From: Gemmatimonadales bacterium
GTDB lineage: Bacteria; Gemmatimonadota; Gemmatimonadetes; Gemmatimonadales; GWC2-71-9
Assembly (NCBI GenBank): GCA_041577295.1
Contig: JBFGJG010000001.1
Location: 148,117-212,116, forward strand
Reading direction: 5' to 3'
DNA: 64,000 nucleotides
Shown piece after piece: positions 1-18,877 of this stretch (position 1 is the stretch's first letter; each line of letters starts with the position of its first letter). Below the pieces are notes generated by a model, which searched no databases, was not told the DNA's origin, and saw nothing but the letters and a program-made list of their open reading frames with translations. A program made the translations under genes and the position numbers.

Positions 1-1536
1 TGTCCAGTGCACGGAGAGTTCGTCGACACGCTTTCCATCGACGCGAAGTTCAGTGAGCTGATCGAAGAGCGGTATCCCGGCCGTGATTTCCGCACAGCGG
101 AAGACGCGTTGATTCATCGGCACGGGACGTCGTCCATTCGCTACGGGCGCGGCGCGGTGCTCACGATCGACCTGACCAACCGCTGCAACATGATGTGCAA
201 TCCCTGCTTTATGGATGCCAACCAAGTGGGGTATGTGCACGAGCTGAGCATGGACGACATTAAGGAGATTTTGGACGCCTCTATTTCGTTCAAGCCACGG
301 CGCCAGATGTCCGTGCAGTTCTCGGGTGGTGAGCCCACCATGTCACCCTACTTCCTCGAAGCGTGTGCGTATGCTAAGGAGGTTGGGTACTACACAGTTC
401 AGGCGGCCACTAACGGATTGCGCTTTGCGCTCGAGCCGGAATACGCGTTCCAGGCCAAGGAAGCCGGTCTCGACATGGCGTACTTCCAGTTCGACGGCGT
501 GACCAACGAAGCGAATCAGCACCGGCAGATCAGCAATCTGTTCGACGCGAAGCAAATGGCTGTCGAGAACATGGCCGCGGCGGGCATCGACATCACGCCC
601 GTAACCACTGTGGTCAACACGATCAACGACGAGCAGGTTGGCCCGATCCTCGATTTCGTCATTCAGAACTCGGACAAGATGGGCGGCGTGTCCTTCCAAC
701 CCGTGTCATTTACAGGACGCGACGAGGACATCAGTGATGAGGACCGGCATCGTCAGCGGTACACAATTTCACACCTGGCGCACGAGCTTTCTCGCTACTA
801 CGGCGGCAAGATCGATCCGTATCGCGACTGGTATCCGCTCGGGGCCATGGGAGCGTTTACCGCCCTTGCCGATCACCTTCGCGGTTCAGAAGTCCCCTTT
901 GGCGGGTTGAACTGCTCATGCCATCCAAATTGCGGTTCGTCCGTCCTCCTCACGGTCAACTCGAAGACCAAGGAGTGGGCGCCGCTCACGCAGTTCTTCA
1001 ATGTGTGGCAATTCATGAAGGACGTGTCGGTCATCTGTGATACTGCGCGTGGCAAGAAGCTGACGGTCGCGCAAGTTGGCATGGCCGTACTGCGTAACTT
1101 CGATCAGTCGAAGGCACCGCCCGGATTCGATCTCGCGGAGTTCGCCAAACTGTTCAACCGCAAGATGGGTGGAGCGTTTACCGGTGGGAAAAAGCCCGAG
1201 CCTCCCGCGTGGAAGCTGATGTGGGTTGGCGGCATGTGGTTCCAGGATCTCTGGACCTACGATTTCCGCCGCACGGAAATGTGCGTGATTCCCTACGCCA
1301 CCCAGGAAGGCGAGATCTCCTTCTGCGCCTACAACACCGGTGTGGGTTGGCGGCAAGTGGTGGAGAACATGCACATGGTCGCGACTACCAAGGATTGGTT
1401 CAAGACGCGAGGTCGGCACAAGATCTACGCGGGGAACCGTCCAATGGATCTCCCGGGCAAGAAGGGTCGGTCGTTGCCCGTGGTCACCGCGGACGTTGGT
1501 GGTGGGAATGGCCACAGCGCCTGTGGGTGCCACTAG
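1..1536 (+). CDS. radical SAM protein, Tes/GDGT-MAS (MJ0619)-like; 5' end probably lies outside the window
   Basis: The frame is open to the window edge. Codons 1-6 encode C-P before the GTG at 7, and 'CPVHGEF' looks like the end of an N-terminal Zn-ribbon. It has the radical-SAM cluster motif 'CNMMCNPC'. The C-terminal block 'GGMWFQDLWTYDFRRTEMCVIPYATQEGEISFCAYN' and the Cys-rich tail 'HSACGCH' resemble the MJ0619/tetraether-synthase family as I recall it; this was not searched. Confidence 0.6.
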   Translation, partial: CPVHGEFVDTLSIDAKFSELIEERYPGRDFRTAEDALIHRHGTSSIRYGRGAVLTIDLTNRCNMMCNPCFMDANQVGYVHELSMDDIKEILDASISFKPRRQMSVQFSGGEPTMSPYFLEACAYAKEVGYYTVQAATNGLRFALEPEYAFQAKEAGLDMAYFQFDGVTNEANQHRQISNLFDAKQMAVENMAAAGIDITPVTTVVNTINDEQVGPILDFVIQNSDKMGGVSFQPVSFTGRDEDISDEDRHRQRYTISHLAHELSRYYGGKIDPYRDWYPLGAMGAFTALADHLRGSEVPFGGLNCSCHPNCGSSVLLTVNSKTKEWAPLTQFFNVWQFMKDVSVICDTARGKKLTVAQVGMAVLRNFDQSKAPPGFDLAEFAKLFNRKMGGAFTGGKKPEPPAWKLMWVGGMWFQDLWTYDFRRTEMCVIPYATQEGEISFCAYNTGVGWRQVVENMHMVATTKDWFKTRGRHKIYAGNRPMDLPGKKGRSLPVVTADVGGGNGHSACGCH

Positions 1537-1620
1537 GTCGGTCGGCGCGGAAGGAGCTGTCACCGACTCAGGAGCCTTGGGGATCGCGTGAACACCGTTC
1601 TTCGAACGGACGGAAAGACG

Positions 1621-1662
1621 GGGCCGGTCGGTTGTTTGCACGTTGAGCACACCGACCGGCCC
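1621..1662 (+). terminator. GC-rich stem-loop between the first two radical SAM genes (possible terminator or attenuator)
   Basis: Perfect 12-bp inverted repeat GGGCCGGTCGGT (1621-1632) / ACCGACCGGCCC (1651-1662) with an 18-nt loop, inside the 206-nt gap 1537-1742. No clear T-tract follows. Confidence 0.3.
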
Positions 1663-1742
1663 TCGCTGTTGATGGCAAAACGGCGCTGTGGTCGCCACGC
1701 TGAGCAGACCACCGCCGTCGCCTTCTCTCGCTCAGGCAGGGA

Positions 1743-3227
1743 GTGCCCGCCATGAAAATGCTACTGGTGCAGCCGCCGCAGGGAACCAGGTTCGGTCTCA
1801 CACGCATCCTGCGCGTCGAACCGCTGGGGTTGGAGTGCGTGGGTGCGGCTGTTCGCGAGCACGGCGTCGATGCCGAGCTCATCGACCTCCGTGTCGATAC
1901 GTGGGAAGGCCTCGACCGTGCACTCGACGACCGACCGGATGTGATTGGGGTGAGCTGCGCGTTCACGACCGATGTGTATCCAACGCTCGAGGTCACCCGC
2001 TTCATCAAAGAGCGCTACCCGGACCTCCCGCTGGTCGTGGGGGGCCACCATGCCTCGCTCGTGCCGGATGACTTCTTCCACACCGACTCCCATGTCGACG
2101 CTGTGGTTATTGGCGAGGGTGAGCAGCCGGCCATCAACATCGTGCAGGCCCTGAAGAACCGGCACCCGATCGATGCCGTCCCGGGGGTCATGACGTGGAA
2201 GAACCGCGAGAACGGCTTCAAGCATCAGCAACTGCGCGCCGGATTCGAGGTGATACCTCAGCCCGATCGATCACTCACGGCCAAGTATCGCGAATGGTAT
2301 CACCACGGCCAGGCAGTGCCGTCGGCCAGCGTCGAAACGTCACGCGGCTGCCCGTTCGACTGCAACTTCTGCAGCGTATGGGTGTTCTACCAGCGCCGTG
2401 CCCGCAGGCGCTCGCCAGAGACCATCGTACGGGAGCTCGAGAACGTCGACGAATACGAAGTCTTCTTCACGGACGACATCGCGTTTCTCCATTACGAGTC
2501 GTACAAGGAGATGGCGGAGCGCATCTTGGCGTCTGGCATGCAAAAGAAGTTCACGTGCGAAACGCGTTGCGACCTCGTCATCAAGTACCGCGACCTGTTC
2601 CCGTTGTGGAAGAAGGCAGGTCTCCACACGGTGTTTCTCGGGGTGGAGAAGATCGATGACGACGGGCTCAAGTCCGTGCGCAAGCGCACCAAAGGCGGGG
2701 CCGACTCCAACGTCGAGGCCATCCGGATCCTGAAGGATGCGGGCATCACGCCGCTGACATCGTTCATCACGGATCCGGCATGGCACGAAGAGGGGTTCGA
2801 TCGGCTGGAGGAATACATCCGGCGCCACGAGCTTCCCAATCCCGCGTTCACCGTGCTCACACCCTTGCCGGGAACGGAGCTGTACACCGAGCGCAAGCAC
2901 GAACTCACGACGCACGACTACGGCTACTATGATGTGATTCACGCCGTGCTGCCAACCACGCTCCCGTTAGAGCGGTTCTATGAACGCCTGGCGCAACTCT
3001 ACGATCTGACCGTCAAGACAACGCGGCTCACGATGCCAATGATGTTCAAGGCGGCGCGGATGGCAATGGATGGGAAGCTGTGGTGCATGCGTCGAGTGTA
3101 CAGTGCCGTGTCGGAAATGCGTCAGCCCAAGGCCTATCTCAAGCCCCCTGTGCGTGTTCTGGCGCCAAGTCGCAACGGCGACGCGGCGACAACCAACGGG
3201 CGCCGGCTCGCGTCACGCGTTGCCTGA
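1743..3227 (+). CDS. B12-binding domain radical SAM protein (class B radical SAM, methyltransferase-like)
   Basis: The N-terminal Rossmann-like B12-binding region is 'MLLVQPP...PDVIGVSCAF...PLVVGGHHAS'. The radical-SAM motif is 'SRGCPFDCNFCSV'. The start could instead be the ATG at 1752 or 1758. Confidence 0.85.
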   Translation: MPAMKMLLVQPPQGTRFGLTRILRVEPLGLECVGAAVREHGVDAELIDLRVDTWEGLDRALDDRPDVIGVSCAFTTDVYPTLEVTRFIKERYPDLPLVVGGHHASLVPDDFFHTDSHVDAVVIGEGEQPAINIVQALKNRHPIDAVPGVMTWKNRENGFKHQQLRAGFEVIPQPDRSLTAKYREWYHHGQAVPSASVETSRGCPFDCNFCSVWVFYQRRARRRSPETIVRELENVDEYEVFFTDDIAFLHYESYKEMAERILASGMQKKFTCETRCDLVIKYRDLFPLWKKAGLHTVFLGVEKIDDDGLKSVRKRTKGGADSNVEAIRILKDAGITPLTSFITDPAWHEEGFDRLEEYIRRHELPNPAFTVLTPLPGTELYTERKHELTTHDYGYYDVIHAVLPTTLPLERFYERLAQLYDLTVKTTRLTMPMMFKAARMAMDGKLWCMRRVYSAVSEMRQPKAYLKPPVRVLAPSRNGDAATTNGRRLASRVA

Positions 3228-3236
3228 CCTGGGACG

Positions 3237-4046
3237 CTACGAGCAGTCGATGCCCAGTCGGGTCGCGAGCCGCTTCGGATCGTCCCACCTCCTCGGCGCG
3301 AGCCCGAGCACGATGTTCCAAAGGCAGTGGAGCGGTGGCGGGAGGTTGGGAGCCGGACCCGGCGTGTAGAAGCGACCCCAACACTGCTCGTGGTCCCAGG
3401 ACCACCCTTTTCCATCCGGGTGCATCCCCGAGCGAGCAGTATAGGTTGGGCTGTGGCTGAGCAGATAAGGGTGAAGCTCGAACCGCGGCTCGATGGGTCG
3501 GCACGCAATGCGAAGTAGCGCGCATTGATGGTTTCGAAGCGCGGCGGGGGTGTCGGGGTGGAGATCCAACGAGATGTCGGTGATGTCGGCGAGGCCGTGA
3601 CGGTACTCACTCGCGATCGGATGCAGGATGGGATCGTCGAGCGTGACTGGGTGTGCCGTGGTCTGGTATTCCGCGAGACGACGCCCAACGACCCGCGTGA
3701 GTGGCGCTTCGGCGGCAGGCGGTGCCACGATCGTTAGAATCACCTCTGCTGGTGCCCTCGCCTCCGCCGGTGCCAATTTGACGATCGAGTAGCTGGTCGC
3801 GTGCTCCCGGACCACGGGATCCTGAACCGTGCCGCTGATCGCCTCCGAGACGAGGGCCTCGAGGGCTCGGAAGGGGGCTCCGGGGATGGAGGGATCAGGC
3901 TCCCGGCGCACCGTCCAGCGATAGAGCGCAAGTTCAGCGTGCATAGTATGCTGTGGGATCGTGACTGTTCTGCACCGTTCGACCACCGACGCCGGTGTGC
4001 TCGCTAGACTTGCGTCGATCGTCAGAAGGGTGAAGGTTTGCCACAC
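3237..4046 (-). CDS. hypothetical protein (269 aa), opposite strand, wedged between the two B12-radical SAM genes
   Basis: A long ORF with protein-like composition fills the whole gap (9 nt from the stop at 3227, 23 nt from the start at 4070). I recognise no motif. Confidence 0.45.
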   Translation of the reverse strand: MWQTFTLLTIDASLASTPASVVERCRTVTIPQHTMHAELALYRWTVRREPDPSIPGAPFRALEALVSEAISGTVQDPVVREHATSYSIVKLAPAEARAPAEVILTIVAPPAAEAPLTRVVGRRLAEYQTTAHPVTLDDPILHPIASEYRHGLADITDISLDLHPDTPAALRNHQCALLRIACRPIEPRFELHPYLLSHSPTYTARSGMHPDGKGWSWDHEQCWGRFYTPGPAPNLPPPLHCLWNIVLGLAPRRWDDPKRLATRLGIDCS

Positions 4047-4069
4047 CTCTCTCTAACCTAGGAACTGCC

Positions 4070-5671
4070 GTGCGACGTCTTCGGATCGGAATACTCGACC
4101 TGGTCACAAAAGCGCCGACGAAAGCGCTATACGGTCGGCTCATGCACCCGAACCTGGCGAGTATCATGCCCCAGGCGGTCGGCGTCTGGTGCGAAGAAGC
4201 GGGCCACAATGTGACGTTCGTCTGCTTCACCGGCTCAGAAGACCTCCTGCAAGAGCTTCCCGCGGACATGGACGTCCTGTTTATCGGCGCCTTCAGCCAG
4301 GCTGCGCAGCTGGCCTACGCTGTCAGCAATTTATTCCGGAAGCGCGGCGCTGTGACCGTCCTCGGTGGCCCCCATGCCCGCTGCTACCCCGACGACGCGA
4401 CCAAGTACTTCGATTATGTCGTGGGCTTCACCGATCAGACCATCATCGACGAGATCCTAAAGGACTGTAGCCCCCATCGACCGGTTGGCCTTCACCTGAC
4501 CGCCAAGAAGCAGCCGCAGTACCTGCCGGGGGTCCGAGAACGGTGGCGCTTCATTGAGCCGACGCTCGCCAAGTCGCCGACGAACATCAAGGGCGTTCCC
4601 ATGATCGGGAGTCTCGGGTGCCCGTATACCTGCAGCTTCTGTATCGATTCCGTCGTCGACTATCAGCCGCTGGATTATGACCAGATCCGTGAGGATCTAC
4701 GCTTTCTGATTGGCAAGATGCCAAATGCGTGGGTGGGATGGCACGATCCCAATTTTGGTGTGCGCTTCGATGACTACATGTCGGCCATCGAAGATGCCAT
4801 CCGTCCGGGAACCCTGACGTTTGCGGCCGAAAGCAGCCTGTCCCTTCTCAAAGAAGCGAATCTCAAGCGCCTCGCGGCGGCAGGCTTCAGGGTCATGCTC
4901 CCAGGGATCGAGTCATGGTACAGCCTCGGTGGCAAGTCCAAAACCGGGCGCAAGACTGGGATGGACAAGGTCCGGCAGGTGTCCGATCACGTCAACCTGA
5001 TTATGTCGTACATCCCATACGTTCAGACGAACTTCGTGCTAGGCCTCGACGTGGATGAGGGCGAGGAGCCGTTTGAATTGACCAAACGTTTCATCGATCT
5101 GACGCCCGGTGCATTTCCGGGATATTCCCTGCTCTCCGCCTTCGGTGAGGCGGCGCCGCTCAATCTCGAATTTCAGAAGGCGGATCGGGTACTGCCCTTC
5201 CCATTCCACTTCCTGAACAACAATCAGGCGATGAACGTCAAGCCCAAGAACTACGAATGGAAGACGTTCTACGATCACGTCATCGACCTGACCCAGTACT
5301 CGTTCTCGTGGAAGAACATCGTGCGGCGGGCCAGGGGGACACAGCGCGGCTTTGCCACGTGGGTGAACCTTCTCCGGGCGGTGTCTTCGGAAGGCTTCGG
5401 TCGCATCAAATACTACAAGACGGTGCGACGGCTGCTCGACACGGACAAGTCGGTGCAGCGCTTTTTTGCCGGGGAAGCCACGACCGATATTCCATCCTTC
5501 TATGTCGATCGCATGAAGAGCGATCTCGGGCCACTGTGGGAGCACCTGCCAGAGGGCGCCTTACACCACGACCCCAACGCCTATCTCAAAAAGATGAACG
5601 GTCGGGCTCCTGCGGTAACTCCGGAATCGGATCTCCAGAAGACTCCTGCGTTGGGTCGGGCCTCTGCCTGA
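4070..5671 (+). CDS. B12-binding-like domain radical SAM protein (second class-B-type radical SAM)
   Basis: The N-terminal region is 'RIGILDL...DVLFIGAFSQAA...VTVLGGPHA'. The radical-SAM motif is 'GSLGCPYTCSFCID'. Confidence 0.8.
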   Translation: MRRLRIGILDLVTKAPTKALYGRLMHPNLASIMPQAVGVWCEEAGHNVTFVCFTGSEDLLQELPADMDVLFIGAFSQAAQLAYAVSNLFRKRGAVTVLGGPHARCYPDDATKYFDYVVGFTDQTIIDEILKDCSPHRPVGLHLTAKKQPQYLPGVRERWRFIEPTLAKSPTNIKGVPMIGSLGCPYTCSFCIDSVVDYQPLDYDQIREDLRFLIGKMPNAWVGWHDPNFGVRFDDYMSAIEDAIRPGTLTFAAESSLSLLKEANLKRLAAAGFRVMLPGIESWYSLGGKSKTGRKTGMDKVRQVSDHVNLIMSYIPYVQTNFVLGLDVDEGEEPFELTKRFIDLTPGAFPGYSLLSAFGEAAPLNLEFQKADRVLPFPFHFLNNNQAMNVKPKNYEWKTFYDHVIDLTQYSFSWKNIVRRARGTQRGFATWVNLLRAVSSEGFGRIKYYKTVRRLLDTDKSVQRFFAGEATTDIPSFYVDRMKSDLGPLWEHLPEGALHHDPNAYLKKMNGRAPAVTPESDLQKTPALGRASA

Positions 5672-6419
5672 TCGCCGCTAGCTGAGCCCGAATCGCTTCA
5701 ACGATACGGTCGACGATGGCCTGAGCCGTCTCGCGCGACCGCGGTCCGTCTAACAGATCGGAGTAATCGACGGGTGGCCCGTATGCCACGCGAATCCGCT
5801 TGAAGAAGCGTGGGACAACCGATCCGATGGGCAGCACGTCCTGCATGCCATCGATCGCCACGGGGATCACCCTCGGTCGCGTGCCCAGAATGACCAGCCC
5901 CGCTCCCGGCCGGCCCCTCCCCACCGACCCGTCCCGTGTTCGGGTCCCCTCCGGAAAGACCGTCATGACGCCAGCCGGCAGAACCTGGAGCATACGATGG
6001 AGCGCATGCAAATCCCGGCGGCCCTCCTTGATCGGAATACACTTCCAGTTGTCCGCGAGCCAGCGCAGGGCAGGTGTCCGATAGAAATTCTCCTCCGCGG
6101 CGGGGTTCCAGGGGAGGAGATGGGGTTTCCAAAGCGATCGCGGGAAATAGGCGAGCAAGCCCACGAGGAAGCTGTCGATCATGGACTGATGGTTCGATAG
6201 CAGCAGCGTGTTCGGCTCATCATCGATGTTCTCGAGCCCGGTCACGGTCGTACGATTGAAGACGCGAAACAGCACCCAAAACACCGCGACCGTGAAATTG
6301 GTCAGGAAATACGCCGTGATCGGCCAAAGAAGCCGGAAGAGGCTCCCCCGCCGTGGCGGGGCATGCTTACGGAGGCGCTCGGTGATTCCTCGGGCGCGGC
6401 TCCGAACCGTTGACGTCAA
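5586..6419 (-). CDS. plsC: 1-acyl-sn-glycerol-3-phosphate acyltransferase family protein (PlsC-like)
   Basis: It has the HX4D acyltransferase motif 'NHQSMIDS', the 'FPEGTRTRDG' motif and an N-terminal TM segment. Its 3' end overlaps the convergent radical SAM gene by 86 nt. Confidence 0.8.
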   Translation of the reverse strand: MTSTVRSRARGITERLRKHAPPRRGSLFRLLWPITAYFLTNFTVAVFWVLFRVFNRTTVTGLENIDDEPNTLLLSNHQSMIDSFLVGLLAYFPRSLWKPHLLPWNPAAEENFYRTPALRWLADNWKCIPIKEGRRDLHALHRMLQVLPAGVMTVFPEGTRTRDGSVGRGRPGAGLVILGTRPRVIPVAIDGMQDVLPIGSVVPRFFKRIRVAYGPPVDYSDLLDGPRSRETAQAIVDRIVEAIRAQLAAIRQRPDPTQESSGDPIPELPQEPDRSSF

Positions 6420-6507
6420 ACCAGTCCCCCCGGAAAACCCGCCACAATGATGCCTGGCGCCAGTTCCGCCCGCAACCCACGAGAACCCCTGGGTTTAGTG
6501 GGCAAGT

Positions 6508-7833
6508 TCAGGTCAGAAACAGGTAACGGAGTACGAAGAGCACCGCGAAGACTGTGATCAACGAGGGAACTTCCTGGATCTTTCCACGAACGGCCTTGAG
6601 CAGCGTATACGAGATGAACCCAAACGCGATGCCTTCAGTAATGCTGAAGGTCAGGGGCATCACGATCATCGTGAGAAAAGCGGGAAGCGCCTCCGCGACG
6701 TCGCTCCAATCTACCCGCGCCACACTCTTGACCATGTAGCTCCCCACGACGATCAATGCCGGCGCCACGATGGGGTACAGCACCTGTCCGTCGCCAAGCG
6801 GCACACCGCGCCCGATCATCCCCACCAACGGCGCGAAGAACAGGGCAAAGAGAAACATTACGGCAGTGACCAGGCTGGCCAATCCCGTTCGGCCACCCGC
6901 GGTGACCCCGGCAGCACTTTCGACGTAGCTGGTTACGGTAGACGTCCCCATGAGGGACCCCGTGACCGTGCCAACGGCGTCTGACAGGAGTGCTTGCCGC
7001 GCCCGAGGCAGTGTGCCATCGTCGCGCACGAGCCCAGCCTCTTGTGTCACGCCGATCAGCGTTCCCACCGTATCGAAGAGGTCGAGAAAGAAGAACACGA
7101 AGATGACAGCAACCATTTCGATGCGGAACACGCCGAGCACGTCCAGACCGAACAACGTCGGCGTCAGTGAGGGCGGACGGCCCACGATCCCCTGAAACTC
7201 CACGAGACCGGTGACGAGTGCCGCGGTCAGCGTCGTCAGGATTCCTGCGAGGATCGCCGCACGGACGCGCCAGGCCAGCAGCACGGCGGTGACGATGAGT
7301 CCGAGCACCGTCAGCAGCGTGGCCGGACTCCGCAGGTCACCGAGCTGGACCAGCGTGCCGGGACTATCGACCACGATTCCGCCCCACTCGAAGCCCACCA
7401 AGGCAATGAGGAGCCCGATGCCCGCCGCGATACCGTTGCGCAGGGCTGCGGGGACCGCGTTGACCAGACGCTCTCGAAACCCGACAAACGCCAGGAGAAT
7501 GAACAAACAGCCCGATACAAAGATGGCTCCGAGCGCTTGTTGCCACGCGTATCCGAGCCCCCCTACTACGGTGTACGTGAAAAAGAAGTTGTGGCCCATA
7601 CCGGGAGCGAGCGCGATTGGGTAGTTCGCAAGCACGCCCATGAGCAACGTGGCGAGAGCGCTCGCGAGACAGGTCGCGACCATCACAGCCCCGGCGTCCA
7701 TCCCCGCAGCTCCCAACACCACCGGTTGGACGAAGATGATGTACGACATAGTGAAAAACGTCGTGGCGCCGGCCACAATCTCGCGCCGGATAGTGGTCTG
7801 GTGCTGTTCAAGCCGGAACAACGGTTCGATCAT
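6508..7833 (-). CDS. NCS2 family purine permease (AzgA/PbuG-type adenine/guanine/hypoxanthine permease)
   Basis: The N-terminus 'FRLEQHQTTIRREIVAGATTFFTMSYIIFVQP' is typical of the family, and the protein is polytopic. I chose the ATG at 7833, which forms an ATGA overlap with the recQ stop, over the ORF-track start at 7893. Confidence 0.85.
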   Translation of the reverse strand: MIEPLFRLEQHQTTIRREIVAGATTFFTMSYIIFVQPVVLGAAGMDAGAVMVATCLASALATLLMGVLANYPIALAPGMGHNFFFTYTVVGGLGYAWQQALGAIFVSGCLFILLAFVGFRERLVNAVPAALRNGIAAGIGLLIALVGFEWGGIVVDSPGTLVQLGDLRSPATLLTVLGLIVTAVLLAWRVRAAILAGILTTLTAALVTGLVEFQGIVGRPPSLTPTLFGLDVLGVFRIEMVAVIFVFFFLDLFDTVGTLIGVTQEAGLVRDDGTLPRARQALLSDAVGTVTGSLMGTSTVTSYVESAAGVTAGGRTGLASLVTAVMFLFALFFAPLVGMIGRGVPLGDGQVLYPIVAPALIVVGSYMVKSVARVDWSDVAEALPAFLTMIVMPLTFSITEGIAFGFISYTLLKAVRGKIQEVPSLITVFAVLFVLRYLFLT

Positions 7834-9104
7834 GTTTTCCCCGTGCGCGGGCCACGCCTCAAGCGGCGCAGCAACCCCTGCGTTGAGTTGCACCAGTCAC
7901 ACCCATGGCACCGCACGCCCTGCTCACCGAGGTAGCTCAACAGCAGCCGGCGACGGCACCGGGCCGCGGTCAAGTACGCGCGCATCGTCTCGAGCCCCCG
8001 ACCCGCCCCCTCACTCCCCATTCCTCCACTCGCGATTGCGCGCCGCGCCAGGCGTCCGGCGAGCCGCAGGTCGCCCTCGAGCCAGAACAGAGCACACTGT
8101 GCCAGCTGACCGTCACGCCCGGCGCGTCCCGCCTCCTGATAGTACGACTCGGGCCGTAGCGGGATGCCGAGGTGGACCACGAGGCGCACATCGGGACGGT
8201 CGATGCCCATACCAAATGCGCTTGTCGCGACGACGAAGCGGAGGCGACCATCGCGAAAGCGTGCGAGGATAGAACGGCGTGCTCTGCTAGGCAAACCCGC
8301 ATGGTATGGCACGACCGGCAAATCCCACCGGCGGAGGAGCGCCGCTACACCGTCAGCCCGGTTGCGTGTCGGCACGTAGATGATGGCCGCGCCGCCCCGC
8401 AAGGCCTCGAGCAGGCGGGAAACCTCCGTGATGCGCTCCAAATTGCTCGCAAAACGGCGAACCCAAAACCGCAAGTTGGGACGGTCGAACGACTGCACAA
8501 TCGTAACTGGACGACGCAATCGCAGGACCCGGGCGATGTCCGTCCGGGTAGCAGGGCTCGCTGTGGCGGTCAAGGCCATCGTGGGCGGCCGACCCAGCAG
8601 CTCCAGCGTGCGCCCGATCGCACGATATGGCGGTCGAAACTGATGACCCCACTCGCTTATGCAATGGGCCTCATCTACCGCAACTAGCGAAATGGGCATG
8701 CCGCGGAGCTCGTCGGTTGCCGAGCGGAGACGCTCGGGAGAGATGTAGAGCAGCTTGAGCTGTCCGGTGCGCGTCGCCCTCCAAACGTGTTGTTGGATCT
8801 GCCGGCGTTGCGTGCTCGCGAGGTAAGCTGCCGCAATGTTTCGTGCGTGGAGAGCAGCCACTTGGTCCTGCATGAGCGAGATCAACGGCGAGACGACGAT
8901 CGTGACGCCACGCATGAGGAGGGACGGAATCTGATAACAGAGCGACTTTCCGCCCCCGGTCGGCAAGACGGCAAGACAGTCTCGTGAATGCAGCGCAGCG
9001 AGGATTGCCCGACGTTGATGATGCCGGAAGTCCCGGTGCTGCCAAACCCCTCGAAGCAGCGATCGAGCCGCTGTGAGCTGCGCGTTCCGGTTCTCTCGAA
9101 TCAC
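7830..9104 (-). CDS. recQ: RecQ family ATP-dependent DNA helicase (short form, no HRDC)
   Basis: It has Walker A 'LPTGGGKSLCYQIP', the DEAH box 'DEAHCISEWGHQFRP' and a C-terminal Zn-binding 'CRRRLLLSYLGE..CHGCDWC'. Confidence 0.9.
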   Translation of the reverse strand: MIRENRNAQLTAARSLLRGVWQHRDFRHHQRRAILAALHSRDCLAVLPTGGGKSLCYQIPSLLMRGVTIVVSPLISLMQDQVAALHARNIAAAYLASTQRRQIQQHVWRATRTGQLKLLYISPERLRSATDELRGMPISLVAVDEAHCISEWGHQFRPPYRAIGRTLELLGRPPTMALTATASPATRTDIARVLRLRRPVTIVQSFDRPNLRFWVRRFASNLERITEVSRLLEALRGGAAIIYVPTRNRADGVAALLRRWDLPVVPYHAGLPSRARRSILARFRDGRLRFVVATSAFGMGIDRPDVRLVVHLGIPLRPESYYQEAGRAGRDGQLAQCALFWLEGDLRLAGRLARRAIASGGMGSEGAGRGLETMRAYLTAARCRRRLLLSYLGEQGVRCHGCDWCNSTQGLLRRLRRGPRTGKT

Positions 9105-9188: not shown

Positions 9189-10130
9189 CTAATACACCTC
9201 GAGATCCCGTCCAAACACCACGTCACCATCCCACTCTGCCCGGACCTCCTCTACGAGCTCCTCGGGACCCGTACCCCACAACAGCTGATGGTAGAGCACG
9301 AGCAGCCCCGGTCGCGCCCGTTGCGCGAGGGCTGCTAGCTCACGGGTGGACGTATGGGCGCTGGCGTGATAACGCTGCCACTCCGGTGCACGCCGCTGAA
9401 AGCTGACCTCCGAGTACACCTCGTGAGCGAGCACGTCGCACCCATCGCAGTGCGTGACGATGGTCTCGCTTGGGGCCGCATCTCCTGAAATGACGATCGA
9501 TCGATCGCTCGCCTCAAACCGATATCCAACCGCACTCGGCCACGTTGCATGACGCACCGGAAACGCCGTGACCCGCACACGCTCGTCCTCGAACACCAAT
9601 CCCGAGTCGATGTCGGTCGCCCTCACGCGGTATCCTTGGTGATTCGTGGGTTCGAGACCGTCCGTCCGAACGCGGATGTCCGCCGCGTACGCCTGAAGCA
9701 GGTGCTCCACCATCTCGCGCGTGCCTCTGGGCCCGTAAACCTGGAGCGGTCGGTCGCGACCGAGTACCCACGGCGTAAAGATGAGATCCGGTAGTCCTAC
9801 GGTGTGATCGCTGTGAAGGTGGGTCAGGAAGACGATGTCGAGATCCGGAATCCGAAACGGCCCCAGCCCCTGCTGGTAGGCCGCGTTGGCCCGGCGCACG
9901 ATGCCCGGGCCCGCATCCACCAGATAGGCACGAGTGCCAGCCGTAACGGCCAGCGCCGTCCCAGAACGGTCGGGCTCCGCGTTCGGAGTGCCCGTCCCCA
10001 ACAGCACGAGCTTGGTGCCCGCGCCGCGTTCGGCTGCCGCAGGTTGATCAGCGGTGTCGTCACCTCCCCCACACGCCACGCAGAAGGTGAAGACAGCTGC
10101 TAAGAATGGTCTCGGCCGCAACCCACTCAC
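9189..10130 (-). CDS. MBL-fold metallo-hydrolase, predicted lipoprotein
   Basis: It has 'LTHLHSDHTVG' (HxHxDH) and a lipobox-like 'FTFCVACGG'. The GTG start forms a GTGA overlap with the upstream stop at 10127-10130. Confidence 0.8.
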   Translation of the reverse strand: MSGLRPRPFLAAVFTFCVACGGGDDTADQPAAAERGAGTKLVLLGTGTPNAEPDRSGTALAVTAGTRAYLVDAGPGIVRRANAAYQQGLGPFRIPDLDIVFLTHLHSDHTVGLPDLIFTPWVLGRDRPLQVYGPRGTREMVEHLLQAYAADIRVRTDGLEPTNHQGYRVRATDIDSGLVFEDERVRVTAFPVRHATWPSAVGYRFEASDRSIVISGDAAPSETIVTHCDGCDVLAHEVYSEVSFQRRAPEWQRYHASAHTSTRELAALAQRARPGLLVLYHQLLWGTGPEELVEEVRAEWDGDVVFGRDLEVY

Positions 10131-10888
10131 TTCTCGAAGAATTGCTTGACCGCGCGCTCGAAGTCCGGCGTCGCGCGTGCGAGCGCGTTCACCTCCGCTC
10201 CAAGCGCAATGGCATCCGTGAAGCTCCGTCCATCGATCTCGTAGAGCTGGCGCTTGATAAACGCGAGTGCCGACGGGCTCGAGTCGGCGAGTTGTTGAAT
10301 GAGACTCGCCACGTCCTGTTCGAACCGCTCCGCGGTCGACATCCGCGACACCAGGCCGATGGCCAGCGCCTCGGCGGCCTGCAATAGCCGTCCCGTGGCC
10401 ACCAGATCGAACGCTACCCGTTCTCCAACAGCCCGACGCAGCATGGCCATCACCATTGCAGGCACAAAGCCCCGCGACACCTCTGGATAGCCGAAAACGC
10501 TATCTGCGTGCGCGTGGATCAGGTCGCATGCGGACGCCAAACCGCAGCCTCCGGCGAGCGCACGGCCGTGCACCGCTGCCACAACCGGCTTGGGCAGTTG
10601 CCGCATTCGTACGAACACCTCTCCGAGGTGCGCGGCGTGCGCAGCATTTTCCTGAGGCGTGTTCCCCACGGAATCGAGCAACTCCTGGAGATCGGCTCCT
10701 GCGCAAAAGTCTTTGCCAGCGCCGCGGATGACGACGACGCGCACGTCCGCATCGACGTCGGCTGTTTCCAATCCAGTAATGAGCCCGTCGACCATCGGGC
10801 GGTCCATCGCATTGCGCTTTTCCGGCCGGTTGAGTGTTAGCGTGAGCACCCCGTTCGCGATAGCGGTCACGACCCGCTCAGCGGACAC
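10127..10888 (-). CDS. enoyl-CoA hydratase/isomerase family protein (AtuE/LiuC-like)
   Basis: It has 'GVLTLTLNRPEKRNAM' and 'VVIRGAGKDFCAGADL'. I placed the start at the GTG at 10888, 5 nt after the upstream stop. The ORF-track ATGs at 10954 and 10984 would overlap the upstream gene. Confidence 0.8.
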   Translation of the reverse strand: MSAERVVTAIANGVLTLTLNRPEKRNAMDRPMVDGLITGLETADVDADVRVVVIRGAGKDFCAGADLQELLDSVGNTPQENAAHAAHLGEVFVRMRQLPKPVVAAVHGRALAGGCGLASACDLIHAHADSVFGYPEVSRGFVPAMVMAMLRRAVGERVAFDLVATGRLLQAAEALAIGLVSRMSTAERFEQDVASLIQQLADSSPSALAFIKRQLYEIDGRSFTDAIALGAEVNALARATPDFERAVKQFFEK

Positions 10889-11243
10889 GGAGACCTCCGG
10901 GAACCCTGATTTCCATGCGAAGGAGTGCGGTTGAAAGGACCTTTCCTTGCGCATCGGTCTTGAGGGAGATCGTTCCCCCCCCACCGAGCGCGCCGTGTAA
11001 CAGGAAGTTCAGGGCGTGCAGGTTTGGAAGCTCGAAACGCTCCACTGGTCCTTTGATCACGCCACGGAAGTGCCGGGCAACGCGGGCCGCCGTGACCTCC
11101 TTGGCGAGCACGGGATAGTACTCTGGTCGCAAGGCAATCAACCCAACGTTGGCCGCGTCACCTTTGTCTCCACTGCGGGCATGCGCGAGATCCAGCAGCC
11201 GCACCAGGCGCGTGGCGACGCGTTTTGCTCCCTTCTTACCCAT
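10878..11243 (-). CDS. small AtuA-associated protein (partner of DUF1446 proteins)
   Basis: It is a 121-aa ORF immediately downstream of the AtuA-like gene (5-nt gap). The 'LAHARSGDKGDAANVG...FLLHGALGGGG' pattern is the one I recall from the small proteins that accompany DUF1446. Confidence 0.55.
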   Translation of the reverse strand: MGKKGAKRVATRLVRLLDLAHARSGDKGDAANVGLIALRPEYYPVLAKEVTAARVARHFRGVIKGPVERFELPNLHALNFLLHGALGGGGTISLKTDAQGKVLSTALLRMEIRVPGGLRVR

Positions 11244-11248
11244 GTGGC

Positions 11249-12625
11249 TCAGGCCTCCAGGATCGACACCCGTGGGTGGATCTCCGTCTTCGGAATGAGC
11301 GCCGGCCAGTAGGCTACAATCTCTTCCACCTTTGGCCGCCCGCTGGCGAATCCGGTGACGCTCGGCGGACCGTTGAGGATCAGCGGGGCGATCTCCCGGG
11401 TGAAACGCTCAACCGGTGTCCGGTCCCTCGCCCGAACCCCGATCCGCAGCTGGACCTCCGCCAGTTCCGGTGTCGGCTCTGGCGCGAGTCGGCCGTGCGT
11501 TGCGTTTGCACCAACGAACTCCGTCAGCGTCTCCTCGAATTCGAGGCCCAGCCGTCTCAAACGCTCCCGGAGAATTCTGTCGGCTTTCTTGGCCTTCTTC
11601 AGCGCGTCCGGCCACGCGTAGACGAGCGTGCCCACCGCCTTGTAGCCATAGTGGTAAGACAGAGAAACCTTGAGCGAGTCGGTGGCTTCCCGACCCTTCA
11701 CCCCGGAGACGCCGACACGGTCTCTCCCGACCTGCGCAAGCTGAATGGTCGTGAAGTCCGCCACACAGTCCGGTGTGATGTAATTACGAGGATCGCCCAT
11801 CTCATAGACGAGTTGTTCGGTGACGCTCGCCACTGTGACGCGCCCACCGGTCTTTGCGTGCTTCGTGACCACGAAGGTGCCATCTCGCTGCGCTTCGATG
11901 ATGGGATACCCCGGATCTTCCATCCCAGGAAGCGACTGCCATCCCACGAGACAGTTGCCACCGGTGCACTGCGCCCCACATTCGATGATGTGTCCGGCAA
12001 CCGTTCCGGCGGCAAGGCGATCCCACTGGTTCCGTCGCCAACCAAAGGCATGGATCATCGGGCCCAACGTGAGTCCCGTATCCGTCACGCGCCCCGTGAT
12101 GACCACGTTAGCGTCCCGCTCTAGCGCCTCCACCACAGGCCAGGCACCAAGGTAGGCGTTGGCCGACTCTACCTTATCACGCACGGTGGAGAGGGGCTCA
12201 CCGGTGTCGAGGTTGTTCAGTGCGTGCCCGCTGGCGAGCAGCTCATCGAGCCGATCCAGCATGTCATCGCCCTCGACGATGCCGATCTTCACTTTGCCGT
12301 GCAATCCAAGGTTTCGCGCCTGTTCCGCAACGGCTGCGGCACACGCCTGCGGATTGACCCCCCCTGCGTTCGCCGTGACGCGGATACCGCGCTCGACCAG
12401 GGCGGGAAGCAGCTTCCGCATGAGCGGCACGAAGTCTTTGGCGTAGCCGAGATTGGGATCGCGCCGTCGCTGCTTCTGCATGATGGACATGGTCACCTCG
12501 GCCAGGTAATCCATCATGAGATAATCGATCGGACCGCCCTCGACCTGCCGCAAAGGTGCCTCGAGCCAGTCACCCCAGAACCCCTGGCCTGACGCGATAC
12601 GGACCAACGTACCGTCAGTCATCAA
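11249..12625 (-). CDS. atuA: acyclic terpene utilisation AtuA family protein (DUF1446)
   Basis: The N-terminus is '[41 protein letters not shown]' and the protein is about 458 aa, as is typical of AtuA/DUF1446. Confidence 0.75.
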
Positions 12626-12652
12626 TCTCCAGGCGGTGCGGCAGCGGGCTCG

Positions 12653-15529
12653 TCAGGGTGTCTCGAGCGCTGGTTCGGGCAGCTTCGAGGCGCCCCGGCG
12701 TACCGAGGACCCGCCATTCGAAAGGGTCGCACGGACCTCGATTAGTGGATCAAAGCCCTCGGGGATTGGCACGGGCGCTGCTTCTGACGGGATGGCCACG
12801 GCCCGCGCTTCGTAGGGGGACAGCTCCACCACGGATTCCGCCATCGTGGAGTCCTGATGGAGCGCTCTCTGCGTGGCGAGTTCGAAGATGATGCGAATCT
12901 CGGCGTCCCAAGTTTCGGGAGCCTCGAGGTGTGCGAAGCCCGGAAGCAACTCCAGGTCGATCCATCCACCTACTCTCGACGAGTCGAGTTCCACGCGGTG
13001 GCGACCGAAGGCGTAGTTGAGCGGAGAATCGCTCACCTTGCGACCCGTCGAATCGAACACCGTGACCCCAAAGTCCGTCAGCTGATGCCAGAGTGGCGGC
13101 GGAACAGCCACATCCACCACCAATCGGCTCGCCCACCTGGGCGGCGCCAACCGGACGACGACCGGCCCGGATCTCTTGCCTGTGACCCGTTTCGTTTGCA
13201 CGGCGCCAACGAGGTCAGCTTCGACGCGCATTGCCCGCGAGGACGCGGTGGGATTTTGCACCACGACGCGTGGCCCCGAGTCGATCGTGGCGATGACGAC
13301 CTCCGGCAGGCGCGCCGTGAGCGAATACCGCACACCCCCGGTAGGGGGAGCAACCACCACCGCCTCGTACACACCGGACACGAGATCGTCGGTCGACACG
13401 CGCAGGGTCACTATATGGCTACCCTCGTCCCCTGCGGTGATGCTGCTCTGATCGCGGAACGGCTGGCCCGATGGCTCGTACAGGTACAGGGTGGCTTCCC
13501 CGGTGCCACGGATTTCCAGCGTGACCTCGAAGCCCCCTCGCTCGGACGGAACGGACAGAAAGAATCGGGACAGCTCGCCAGGTGCCAAGCTGCCCGAGGT
13601 TTCGAATCCTTCTTCGATGGCATGAGGAACCACGACGCTATTCACGAGCGCCAGCGACGGACCAGCGATCGTATCCGTTGCCGGGGAGGCCCAGACGGTT
13701 CCGACATAGAGACCCGGATCCTGGAGCCGCAACGCGTCGTAGCGAACCGTGACGGTCTCCGGCCGTCCTTCGAGATCGATACTCGAAGGCACCCGGAGCC
13801 ATGGCGCGTCAGGCTCGAGGAGAAGGCGGGCAGCGGGTTGCCCTCCGACGGAGCGGATCACGAAGCGCTGCAGCGTGTCCGCGCTCGACCGAAGACCCGT
13901 TCGGCGAAATGCTGCGGGTCGCTCGTCGGTATCCTCACCCAAAGCACGAACCTCGTAGATGCCCGTCTGATGCGCCGCGAGGAGCCAGCGATAGGCGCGC
14001 AGGACGTCTACTACGCCTGCGCCGGCGTCGAGGACCGTAGCACCCGAGATCGGCTTGGCCGTTGCCATCATGGCGCGCTTGAGATCCACCGCTCGGATCG
14101 TGCGTCCCTGCTGCTTCATCGCGGACAACAGGAGCGCTCCGACTCCACTCACGTGGGGCGCCGCCATGCTCGTCCCACCCGAAACCTCCTCGCCCACCCG
14201 CCACTGTGGGACGCTGGAAAAAGCGACCCCGGGCGCACACACGTCGGGCTTGGCCACCTCTCCTCCTCGACCGCTCCACCACCCGAGGATATCGGGCGCG
14301 GGGGCGACACCGCTCTGTGGCGGCCGCGCGAACACCCCGGGGAAGAGCGCACAGACCGATAGCGCGCGCTCCGCCGAGCCGGGAAACCCTACCGTCGACA
14401 GCCCGGGACCGTCGTTTCCGGCGCTGATAACGACGAGGACATCCGGATGCTTCAGGGCGAACTCGTCGATCACCGAGTCAATCGCTGCAGCTCCCTCTTG
14501 CTCATTGCCAACGCCAAAGCTGAGGTTGATTACGAGCGGCAGTCCTCGCTGTTCAGCAAACACCGCCGCGTAGTTCAGCGCGCGGAGCATGCTGCCCGTC
14601 ATCGAAATACCGCCTCTCGTGTTATTGGAAATCTTGAGACCCAGCAGCCACGCCCCGGGGGCAACACCATCGAACCCCTGCACCCCGAAGAGATTGTGGC
14701 CCGCGGCGATACCCGCGACATGCGTACCGTGGCTGGAGTTGTCGAGAAACAGGTCGAGGAGCGGCTGTCCCCCGTACTCAACGAGGTTCGCCGCGACGGT
14801 GATGGGGCCCTTCATTCTGGGATCACTGCGGAACGTGAGCACTTCGCCTGCCACTGCGAAGTCGCGGACATGCGGCTCTCCGGCGAGCGAGCCGTCACCA
14901 TCTGTATCGGCGAAGAGCACCCAGCCCGCGGTCGACCTGGCCACGAGGAGCGGAAGCTCATCGGTCACGCGCCCGTTGCCGTTGATGTCCCCCTCAGGCG
15001 CGGTACCGAGCGTGATCTCTCGGAAGACGCCGCCGTAAAAGGGTGGGGTCGCAACACGGGCAACGCGTCCGAAGCCTTGGAGGCGGTGGCGTCCGATCGT
15101 GATGGTGCCATCGGAAGCGGGTCGCACCAGTGTCAAGGGAACACGTCCCTCTCCCGAGAAATCGCGCAGGTCGAGGATCTTGCGGTCACCGGTGGTGGTC
15201 TCGCCAAGGCCGAGGACGCCCGCATCGATGCCGCTATCCAGAATGGCAATGACGACTCCACGGCCGTCGTAATTCGGTCGTGCCACTCGAAACGTGTCTG
15301 CCCCGCTGCTCCGTAGCGGCATCAGACCGGCCAGCATGGCCAGCTGTGGAGGCAGCACCGGTTCGCGCGGAGGTGGTGGCGTGATGGCGCGAGGCTCCTC
15401 GGGCGGGGCGTCGGCAAGCGTTGCGTCCGCGCGGCTCGGCTCCGGCGTGGGAGTGGGCGCGGGACCGCTGGCGCATGCCGCAGACACAGACACAAACGTC
15501 ACGAGCAGCCAAGCGCGGGTTCCGATCAT
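12653..15529 (-). CDS. S8 family serine peptidase, large secreted lipoprotein (tripeptidyl-peptidase-II-like spacing of the triad)
   Basis: The catalytic triad is Asp 'AILDSGID', His 'HGTHVAGIAAG' and Ser 'GGTSMAAPHVSG', with about 170 residues between Asp and His. The signal peptide/lipobox is 'LLVTFVSVSAAC'. The start forms an ATGA overlap with the upstream stop at 15526-15529. Confidence 0.9.
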   Translation of the reverse strand: MIGTRAWLLVTFVSVSAACASGPAPTPTPEPSRADATLADAPPEEPRAITPPPPREPVLPPQLAMLAGLMPLRSSGADTFRVARPNYDGRGVVIAILDSGIDAGVLGLGETTTGDRKILDLRDFSGEGRVPLTLVRPASDGTITIGRHRLQGFGRVARVATPPFYGGVFREITLGTAPEGDINGNGRVTDELPLLVARSTAGWVLFADTDGDGSLAGEPHVRDFAVAGEVLTFRSDPRMKGPITVAANLVEYGGQPLLDLFLDNSSHGTHVAGIAAGHNLFGVQGFDGVAPGAWLLGLKISNNTRGGISMTGSMLRALNYAAVFAEQRGLPLVINLSFGVGNEQEGAAAIDSVIDEFALKHPDVLVVISAGNDGPGLSTVGFPGSAERALSVCALFPGVFARPPQSGVAPAPDILGWWSGRGGEVAKPDVCAPGVAFSSVPQWRVGEEVSGGTSMAAPHVSGVGALLLSAMKQQGRTIRAVDLKRAMMATAKPISGATVLDAGAGVVDVLRAYRWLLAAHQTGIYEVRALGEDTDERPAAFRRTGLRSSADTLQRFVIRSVGGQPAARLLLEPDAPWLRVPSSIDLEGRPETVTVRYDALRLQDPGLYVGTVWASPATDTIAGPSLALVNSVVVPHAIEEGFETSGSLAPGELSRFFLSVPSERGGFEVTLEIRGTGEATLYLYEPSGQPFRDQSSITAGDEGSHIVTLRVSTDDLVSGVYEAVVVAPPTGGVRYSLTARLPEVVIATIDSGPRVVVQNPTASSRAMRVEADLVGAVQTKRVTGKRSGPVVVRLAPPRWASRLVVDVAVPPPLWHQLTDFGVTVFDSTGRKVSDSPLNYAFGRHRVELDSSRVGGWIDLELLPGFAHLEAPETWDAEIRIIFELATQRALHQDSTMAESVVELSPYEARAVAIPSEAAPVPIPEGFDPLIEVRATLSNGGSSVRRGASKLPEPALETP

Positions 15530-17148: not shown

Positions 17149-17585
17149 TCGACGCGACCCGCGGCCCACGTTCGGATGTATTCGATGATCTCGGTGGTGG
17201 GTGTGCCTGGGGTGAAGATCTTCGCGACGCCCTGCTCCCCGAGCCGGTCGATATCGTCCTGTGGGATGATGCCGCCGCCGATGAGCAACACGTCACCGCG
17301 CCCGGCATCTGTCAGGAGGTCACGCACTCGTGGAAAGAGGGTCATGTGCGCACCCGAGAGAATCGACAGGCCCACGACGTCGACATCCTCCTGAACCGCG
17401 GCCGTGGCGATCATTTCCGGGGTCTGATGCAGTCCCGTGTAGATGACCTCCATCCCCGCGTCCCGCAGTGCGGCCGCGACGACTTTGGCGCCGCGATCAT
17501 GGCCGTCGAGCCCGGGTTTGCCCACGAGAACGCGGATCGGTCGCACGGCCGATTGGCTGGCCTTCCGTTTCACCGCTGGATTCAT
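17145..17585 (-). CDS. icmB: acyl-CoA mutase small subunit, cobalamin-binding domain (IcmB-like)
   Basis: It has the B12-binding DxHxxG motif '[12 protein letters not shown]' and '[11 protein letters not shown]', and is about 146 aa like the ICM small subunit. Confidence 0.8.
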
Positions 17586-17643
17586 TGTGCGCGCAACGTA
17601 CCGTGGGGCGGAGTGGCGAACAAGCGGCTGCCATCCATGGGGG

Positions 17644-18843: not shown

Positions 18844-18877
18844 TCGCAGATTTACCTCCCCGTCCGCGACGAAGACA

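Follow-up and report, generated by a model that had tools for sequence, protein, structure and literature searches.

The tetraether synthases Tes/GDGT-MAS (MJ0619 and MA_1486; structures 7TOL and 7TOM) are radical S-adenosylmethionine (SAM) enzymes that in archaea join two isoprenoid lipid tails into a membrane-spanning lipid through tail-to-tail Csp3-Csp3 coupling. A 2022 report described bacterial homologs of Tes and suggested that they produce brGDGTs (branched glycerol dialkyl glycerol tetraethers) (PMC8941075); the idea was taken up for Solibacter usitatus (PMC10087280) and was still called experimentally unconfirmed in 2025 (PMC11868695), and a 2025 paper (Chen 2025), as cited in PMC13023045, ties Tes to the iso-diabolic tetraesters of Ca. 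Koribacter versatilis. Archaeal cobalamin (B12) radical SAM enzymes methylate, cyclize, or desaturate the products of Tes (PMC13459092; bioRxiv 10.1101/2025.10.20.683597), and in bacteria gms genes are found clustered with tes or mss (PMC11214058); the Mss study detected no mss in the Acidobacteria that it examined (PMC13159169). Which organisms produce brGDGTs, which enzymes couple the tails in aerobes and, especially, which enzymes add the extra methyl groups are questions still being debated (PMC11868695, PMC13023045, PMC13274423). Here we describe a locus at positions 1-6419 of a 64,000-nt stretch of DNA (the window) from a soil-type Gemmatimonadales bacterium, in which an open reading frame (ORF1) for a Tes-like radical SAM enzyme is followed by ORF2, which encodes an HpnR-like B12 radical SAM protein. 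ORF1 belongs to a bacterial clade, here termed clade A, and its linkage to ORF2 is real. We put at roughly 0.55 the probability that this Tes-type enzyme, paired with the HpnR-like tailoring enzyme and an adenylate-forming-like protein, makes, and probably methylates, membrane-spanning fatty-acyl lipids.

The Tes-like enzyme and its metal sites

ORF1 (1-1536, plus strand) is a member of the Tes/GDGT-MAS family of radical SAM enzymes. Frame 1 is open from base 1 of the window to a stop at 1536, and the 5' end of the gene is missing. A database search returned an identical full-length product of 619 aa (P0001), residue 109 of which is the first residue in the window, such that the window encodes residues 109-619 and begins at the CPVH half-site of a metal-binding motif. 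P0001 scores 310.7 bits on the NCBIfam Tes model NF045702 (281.4 bits for the window fragment), the curated equivalog cutoff of which is 450 bits; Tes is nonetheless the top family, with the runner-up, TrsS, ~100 bits lower at 208 bits. In a sequence search of the PDB, GDGT-MAS was the sole significant match (7TOL, E 2e-61). An AlphaFold2 (AF2) model of the protein, with a predicted local distance difference test score (pLDDT) of 70.8 and low confidence in the metal-site loops, has the four-domain overall fold of 7TOL/7TOM and matches these structures with an E-value of 1e-25 (TMt 0.74, TMq 0.60); the next structural match is SkfB (E 6e-07, TMt 0.41, TMq 0.26). A preliminary description of this DNA, made from its letters, had likened ORF1 to the MJ0619/Tes family, in part from a C-terminal block that we locate at nt 1228-1335 (GGMWFQDLWTYDFRRTEMCVIPYATQEGEISFCAYN), and had suggested a structural comparison with GDGT-MAS; sequence, profile, and predicted fold all bear this likeness out.

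P0001 was compared with GDGT-MAS at the metal ligands given in PMC9433317. The radical SAM triad is kept as C170, C174, and C177, and the CX3CX2C motif CNMMCNPC, already recognized in the preliminary description, lies at nt 184-207. The rubredoxin-like site for a mononuclear Fe, CX2C...CX2H, is likewise kept as C63, C66, C109, and H112 (C9, C12, C33, and H36 in MJ0619), with a spacer of X42 versus X20; only C109 and H112 of this site fall in the window (nt 1-12). In the alignment, the counterpart of the [4Fe-4S]C region of GDGT-MAS is encoded by nt 922-1335, and here P0001 keeps HPNC419G (HPNCG, 922-936), M520 as the equivalent of the labile Met439 (GGMWF, 1228-1242), MC536VIP (EMCVIPY, 1276-1296), and SFC550AY (SFCAYN, 1318-1335), the cysteine ligands of this C-terminal cluster being assigned by alignment only. 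The N-terminal auxiliary [4Fe-4S] cluster, held in GDGT-MAS by C73X3C77X2C80 plus a His (PMC9433317), is the site that differs: the cysteine triad is replaced by HRHGTSS (nt 115-135), and the stretch of P0001 that separates the CPVH site from the radical SAM motif is free of Cys. P0001 also carries an N-terminal helix extension of ~56 aa relative to GDGT-MAS.

The substrate-sulfur intermediate of GDGT-MAS arises on a [4Fe-4S] cluster (PMC9433317), which a 2026 review assigns to [Fe4S4]C (PMC13459092). Because P0001 scores below the equivalog cutoff and lacks one of four metal sites present in Tes, "Tes" as such is not established for ORF1; it is a family member and not a canonical Tes. How a Tes-type enzyme would work without the N-terminal [4Fe-4S] cluster is a mechanistic question raised by this ligand pattern, from which a clade A enzyme would be predicted to hold two [4Fe-4S] clusters plus one Fe, as against three clusters in GDGT-MAS. 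The protein ends in a Cys-rich tail, ACGCH (residues 615-619, nt 1519-1533), and a CGC or CC near the C terminus recurs in a subclade from Gemmatimonadota, Calditrichota, and Latescibacterota; from its sequence, this tail might make up for the lost N-terminal cluster by providing additional metal ligands.

A bacterial sister clade of Tes

Relatives of P0001 were sought exhaustively among 50%-identity representatives and then in a scan that took a single genome for each species. The genomes of at least 595 species encode clade A relatives. The segments RCNMMCxPCF, HPNCG, GMWF, MC[VI]IP, and SFCAY are common to all 79 full-length relatives that were examined, and in each of the 79 the rubredoxin-like site, the Met439 equivalent, and the [4Fe-4S]C-aligned residues are present, while the N-cluster cysteines give way to the pattern HxHG[TS]S. 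The more distant homologs examined (31-38% identity), which include MJ0619 and proteins from Thorarchaeota and Phycisphaerae, retain CPxxCGxC with the sole exception of P0300. A neighbor-joining tree splits clade A from this canonical group and, judged from these sequences, clade A is a coherent bacterial sister clade of Tes. The Tes-like protein is unusually well conserved across Gemmatimonadota and Calditrichota (at least 68-70% identity).

Clade A hosts are found in Gemmatimonadota, Latescibacterota, Polyangia, Eremiobacterota, and Acidobacteriota, the last represented by Bryobacterales, Pyrinomonadaceae/Blastocatellia, Vicinamibacterales, Terriglobia, Thermoanaerobaculia, and Holophagales. 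We take the first four of these acidobacterial groups to correspond to subdivisions 3, 4, 6, and 1, respectively. Iso-diabolic acid has been reported from acidobacterial subdivisions 1, 3, 4, and 6 (PMC13159169), which on this mapping are among the hosts of clade A, a distribution that favors the pathway proposed below.

Some divergent members, such as P0248 (Terriglobus roseus WP_014786616.1), P0256, and P0279, have lost aligned cysteines of the C-terminal cluster; the T. roseus protein reads HPDAS, LSTAL, and SFSF at these positions and retains the Met439 equivalent. Such cysteine-poor paralogues may, from their sequences, be catalytically different or inactive. T. roseus is presumably a subdivision-1 acidobacterium, and thus of a group reported to make iso-diabolic acid.

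ORF2 and its linkage to the Tes-like gene

ORF2 (1743-3227, plus strand; family label B12A) matches the Pfam domains B12-binding (PF02310; 78.9 bits) and Radical_SAM (PF04055; 69.4 bits), and has the class B architecture of an N-terminal B12-binding domain followed by a radical SAM core with a CX3CX2C motif (CPFDCNFC, nt 2349-2372). Database gene calls point to the ATG at 1752 as the likely true start, which gives a protein of 491 aa; because these calls start later than the ORF, an exact-product look-up of ORF2, made to extend the locus upstream, returned no match. The best-scoring NCBIfam family is the hopanoid C-3 methylase HpnR (TIGR04367), at 351 bits for ORF2 and 332-355 bits for seven family members, with an equivalog cutoff of 650 bits; the ORF2 family matches only positions 1 to ~430 of the 490-position model. 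No hopanoid genes occur in the window or beside the ORF2 homologs that have no Tes-like neighbor (loci L096 and L099). We therefore rejected ORF2 as a true HpnR, on a score of about half the cutoff and the lack of hopanoid context, and for the same reasons regard the database labels "HpnR" as over-annotations. By sequence, the ORF2 family is a sister family of cobalamin radical SAM enzymes and not HpnR itself.

The linkage between ORF2 and the Tes-like gene was evaluated from the ORF2 side by scanning metagenome contigs with an alignment of the ORF2 family. Among loci with family members of at least 52% identity, a Tes-like gene lies within the available flank in 29 of 53; where at least 2.5 kb is available on both flanks, it is adjacent in 13 of 16. 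The two genes occur in tandem, convergent, and divergent arrangements, mostly separated by 10-290 bp, and in more distant ORF2 clades the link is found in only 1 of 27 loci. An adjacency that survives rearrangement in this way is good evidence for a functional link. In the same ORF2-scan loci, a ChaC-like gene recurs, as does an AMP-binding-like gene, the latter placed directly upstream of the Tes-like one. In the present genome, sequence upstream of the window, taken from the 5.3-kb contig that bears P0001, contains the short AMP-binding-like gene, and relatives carry the ChaC-like gene as well; the cluster does extend beyond the window edge, as had been anticipated.

Viewed from the Tes-like gene, the neighborhood is far more variable. 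The 88%-identical relative L002 has the order ChaC-like, AMP-binding-like, Tes-like, ORF2 homolog, ORF3 homolog, and convergent acyltransferase, the last two corresponding to genes described in the next section. In tblastn searches of 80 loci from genomes of other lineages, neither ORF3 nor the acyltransferase was found near the Tes-like gene, and ORF2 and the AMP-binding-like gene were found in only four and five loci, respectively; when the families neighboring the Tes-like gene were clustered, none extended beyond 20 of 83 loci. The Tes-like gene of Acidobacteriota, Latescibacterota, and Polyangia occurs without ORF2, ORF3, or acyltransferase partners. With both analyses negative, a four-gene cluster shared across phyla was rejected; the conservation of the four-gene neighborhood, which the preliminary description had proposed as a check, fails, and apart from this lineage and one close relative, ORF3 and the acyltransferase do not adjoin the pair. 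Other Gemmatimonadota-type contigs encode the Tes-like gene with ORF2 only, or with an AMP-binding gene and an LPG_synthase_TM gene, or alone.

Two of the loci place the Tes-like gene in an independent phospholipid context. In L087, a gene for an LPG_synthase_TM-family membrane protein (9863-10855) follows the Tes-like gene and overlaps its stop codon; in L089, an LPG_synthase_TM-type gene precedes the Tes-like gene and a CDP-alcohol phosphatidyltransferase gene is nearby (5634-6722 and 15678-16523). Separately, many Pyrinomonadaceae/Blastocatellia loci (L016-L034 and others) carry lpxD-like, lpxB, and LptD-like genes, which serve lipid A and outer-membrane biogenesis, 0.1-8 kb upstream of the Tes-like gene. 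These subdivision-4 neighbors hint at an envelope-lipid context, or may instead reflect inherited synteny.

ORF3, the acyltransferase, and other genes of the window

Every ORF listed in the preliminary description was recovered, at its coordinates, in a six-frame ORF list and by direct translation; when 1400-6600 was scanned for promoters and terminators, nothing usable rose above shuffled expectation. ORF3 (4070-5671, plus strand; family label rSAM_B) has a cluster motif, CPYTCSFC, at nt 4619-4642 and a Rossmann-like N-terminal domain. Its match to Radical_SAM is borderline (30.7 bits; cutoff 29.5), its match to B12-binding (PF02310) is below threshold (20.5 versus 32.1 bits), and a PDB sequence search with an ORF3 profile gave insignificant matches only. 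An AF2 model (pLDDT 80) finds its best PDB fold matches by Foldseek in TokK, CysS, and AprD4 (TM ~0.5), and the ORF3 and ORF2 families align weakly over both domains in hhalign (72% probability, E 3e-5). AprD4 does not use cobalamin. Fold and weak profile match together suggest that ORF3 is a divergent member with class B architecture, for which cobalamin binding is putative. Of the two B12-binding radical SAM proteins originally proposed, ORF2 thus holds at the level of Pfam and ORF3 by predicted fold only.

ORF3 homologs of 68-85% identity are found in Gemmatimonadota, Longimicrobiales, and Calditrichia. The convergent gene on the minus strand (5586-6419) encodes a PlsC/LPLAT-family acyltransferase, as originally described: it matches PF01553 with 66.9 bits and has the HX4D motif I as H77QSMID (the NHQSMIDS of that description), motif III as FPEGTR at residue 155, and motif IV, which is hydrophobic, as PVAI at 186. 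Its best NCBIfam match is the acyltransferase domain of the Aas-type acyl-ACP--phospholipid O-acyltransferase, and it falls below the cutoff of the 1-acyl-G3P acyltransferase model TIGR00530 (34 versus 103 bits). The 3' ends of ORF3 and the acyltransferase gene overlap by 86 bp (5586-5671), which encode poorly conserved tails of low pLDDT, and the two genes are 234 bp apart in L002. Between ORF2 and ORF3 lies a 269-aa ORF on the minus strand (3237-4046) with coding-like codon-position GC (0.67/0.53/0.74; GC3 0.74) and no match to any Pfam or NCBIfam family. L002, the 88%-identical relative, lacks the ~580 bp in which this ORF sits, and among the fetched loci it has a homolog only in L001, another contig of the same organism. 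The "orphan ORF" of the preliminary description therefore exists, and we rejected it as a member of the cluster: it is a strain-specific insertion outside the conserved module.

The strongest of the alternatives, which we rate at even odds, is that the functional unit consists of the Tes-like, ORF2, and AMP-binding-like genes only, with ORF3, the acyltransferase, and the orphan ORF present as bystanders through local rearrangement. ORF3 and the acyltransferase adjoin the pair only in the window and one sister population (L002-5/L136 for the acyltransferase, the link of which to the cluster is uncertain), and ORF3 homologs in three other genomes stand alone in unrelated contexts. The lists of ORF3 and Tes matches appear to share three large contigs only, and a minus-strand string syntenic with L002 ends with the acyltransferase gene; the insertion of the orphan ORF speaks the same way. 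A conserved partnership of ORF3 with the acyltransferase was also considered and rejected, as no such pairing occurs at the other ORF3 loci inspected. Set against this are the position of ORF3 in L002, on the same strand as ORF2 and just 262 bp from it, the unusual conservation that ORF3 shares with the Tes-like protein across Gemmatimonadota and Calditrichota (at least 68-70% identity), and the distant homology of ORF3 to ORF2 with a class B radical SAM fold.

Three further observations concern the remainder of the window. A xanthine/uracil-family permease gene (6508-7893, minus strand; PF00860, 144 bits) lies between the acyltransferase and RecQ genes; L002 has only a 76-aa ORF at this position, a second local insertion/deletion difference between the lineages. 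A minus-strand string of acyl-CoA metabolism genes at 10127-20602, interrupted by a subtilase gene, encodes an enoyl-CoA hydratase, AtuA with an AtuA-ferredoxin domain, a carboxyltransferase, a B12-binding subunit (17145-17585), and a methylmalonyl-CoA-mutase-type large subunit (18878-20602). The presence of methylmalonyl-CoA mutase with its B12-binding subunit shows that the organism uses cobalamin, a point in favor of the pathway proposed below, and the string may bear on the supply of branched-chain acyl-CoA. Finally, a 407-aa radical SAM protein with a weak match to the RlmN N-terminal domain (32394-33617, plus strand) probably serves as a housekeeping methyltransferase of rRNA or tRNA, with no relation to the cluster.

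A proposed pathway and its alternatives

In the pathway we favor, ORF1 would be a bacterial tetraether synthase paralogue that couples two lipid tails at their terminal carbons by means of SAM-derived 5'-deoxyadenosyl radicals and its C-terminal auxiliary [4Fe-4S] cluster. These tails would most plausibly be iso-branched fatty-acyl chains of glycerolipids, which would yield membrane-spanning lipids of the iso-diabolic-acid type. ORF2 would tailor the same hydrocarbon chains, most likely by C-methylation of an unactivated carbon, as HpnR and the archaeal Gmm/Cgm do, and the AMP-binding-like gene just upstream of the window would be a second conserved partner. ORF3 and the acyltransferase could contribute a further modification of the tails and a re-acylation step; these roles are speculative and have adjacency in this lineage as their sole basis. 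As a locus for membrane-spanning or methylated lipids, the cluster of the preliminary description is thus partly supported, through its Tes-like and HpnR-like pair and not in the membership of ORF3 and the acyltransferase.

Several points weigh against this pathway. The loss of the [4Fe-4S]N cysteine triad in P0001 and throughout its clade, and a Tes score well short of the equivalog cutoff (310.7 versus 450), mean that chemistry or substrate may differ from those of Tes; P0001 is only ~32% identical to MJ0619 and belongs to a sister clade known from sequences and a predicted fold. Most clade A members have no ORF2, ORF3, or acyltransferase gene close by, and the acyltransferase could equally belong to the downstream minus-strand gene string (RecQ and others). 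Cobalamin radical SAM enzymes also cyclize, desaturate, and contract rings, and methylation by ORF2 is just a prior expectation. The culture evidence of Chen 2025, as far as it is cited in PMC13023045, concerns acidobacterial homologs that may or may not belong to clade A, and we found no literature linking Gemmatimonadota to Tes homologs, brGDGTs, or membrane-spanning lipids.

The same features feed a second alternative, to which we assign perhaps one chance in five: that the clade A enzyme carries out radical chemistry on another substrate, for example, acyl chains of lipid A or other envelope components, fatty acids in free or adenylated form, or a molecule that is no lipid, with the likeness to Tes limited to fold and cofactors. 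The clade-wide loss of one of four metal sites, the ~56-aa N-terminal extension, and the sub-cutoff score would fit such a reading, as would upstream partners that resemble adenylate-forming enzymes and ChaC rather than phospholipid genes, and the lpxD, lpxB, and LptD-like neighbors in subdivision-4 Acidobacteriota. The family was, moreover, formerly given a pterin methyltransferase role, which survives in the Pfam name Zn_ribbon_HMPTM; the authors of the structure paper could not corroborate that role (PMC9433317). What weighs against this reading is that the clade keeps the labile Met and the ligands of the C-terminal cluster, which is implicated in catalysis, that a lipid enzyme, GDGT-MAS, is the only close structural relative, that the recurrent partner ORF2 is nearest to a lipid methylase, and that the LPG_synthase_TM and CDP-alcohol transferase neighbors indicate phospholipids. 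The weakest alternative, that ORF2 is a plain hopanoid C-3 methylase whose position by the Tes-like gene is functionally meaningless, has in its favor the identity of the best-scoring family and the name "hopanoid C-3 methylase HpnR" in JGI and some NCBI records, but is very improbable given half-cutoff scores with partial model coverage, the absence of hopanoid genes at the sites inspected, and a neighboring Tes-like gene in 13 of 16 loci, preserved through three arrangements.

A more ambitious extension of the favored pathway is that clade A is the missing synthase of iso-diabolic acid and the brGDGT core in aerobic soil bacteria (here Acidobacteriota subdivisions 1, 3, 4, and 6, Gemmatimonadota, Latescibacterota, and Polyangia) and that ORF2, its HpnR-like neighbor in Gemmatimonadota, is the mid-chain (C5/C6) methylase behind the MBT'5Me paleothermometer. 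We hold this to be rather unlikely as it stands. Were it true, Gemmatimonadota would be a major unrecognized soil source of methylated membrane-spanning lipids. In the accessible literature, we found no study that separates a clade without the N-terminal cluster, and none that names a C5/C6 methylase.

That bacterial Tes homologs are brGDGT candidates has been in print since 2022 (PMC8941075). What is new here is the cofactor loss of the clade, its Gemmatimonadota hosts, and a conserved B12 partner that is a candidate lipid-tail methylase. Methylation and cyclization indices of brGDGTs are among the most used terrestrial proxies of paleotemperature and pH, and Gemmatimonadota, common in soils, become a new candidate producer phylum. 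The loss of CPxxCGxC, together with RCNMMCxPCF, GMWFQDLW, and SFCAYN, provides a signature that divides bacterial Tes homologs into two clades and should sharpen metagenomic surveys that now pool them. The locus offers a compact candidate unit of two or three genes (AMP-binding-like, Tes-like, and HpnR-like B12 radical SAM) and reduces to a small cloning question: which enzymes make iso-diabolic-type lipids in aerobes, and where the extra methyl groups come from.

Comparison with known systems

The window protein resembles Tes/GDGT-MAS (MJ0619, MA_1486; 7TOL/7TOM) in its radical SAM core, rubredoxin-like site, [4Fe-4S]C-aligned residues with their Met, and fold. It differs in its identity of ~32%, its separate clade and sub-cutoff score, the absence of the CX3CX2C ligands of the N-terminal cluster, and the presence of an N-terminal extension of ~56 aa, an X42 spacer, and a C-terminal CGC(H) tail; unlike archaeal Tes, it has a bacterial host, and its presumed substrates are fatty-acyl instead of isoprenoid. 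The bacterial Tes proteins of Zeng 2022, Halamka 2022, and Chen 2025 fall under the same hypothesis and superfamily, and clade A includes homologs from Bryobacterales and Terriglobia; the accessible publications on bacterial Tes do not split clade A from canonical-type proteins (e.g., of Phycisphaerae) and mention neither Gemmatimonadota nor a B12 radical SAM partner. Mss from Thermotoga/Thermoanaerobacter (PMC13159169) is also a radical SAM enzyme, and the same tail-to-tail fatty-acyl coupling is proposed for the window protein; Mss, however, represents a different radical SAM lineage, from anaerobes, whereas the window protein is Tes-like and not Mss-like.

ORF2 shares the B12-binding plus radical SAM architecture of HpnR and of Gmm, Cgm, Pgm, Grs, and Ted. 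HpnR is its nearest curated family, from which it is set apart by a score of half the HpnR cutoff and a setting without hopanoid genes; its likeness to Grs and Gmm is one of architecture and gene context. In that context, ORF2 stands beside a putative tail-coupling enzyme, just as gmm and grs stand beside gms (PMC11214058).

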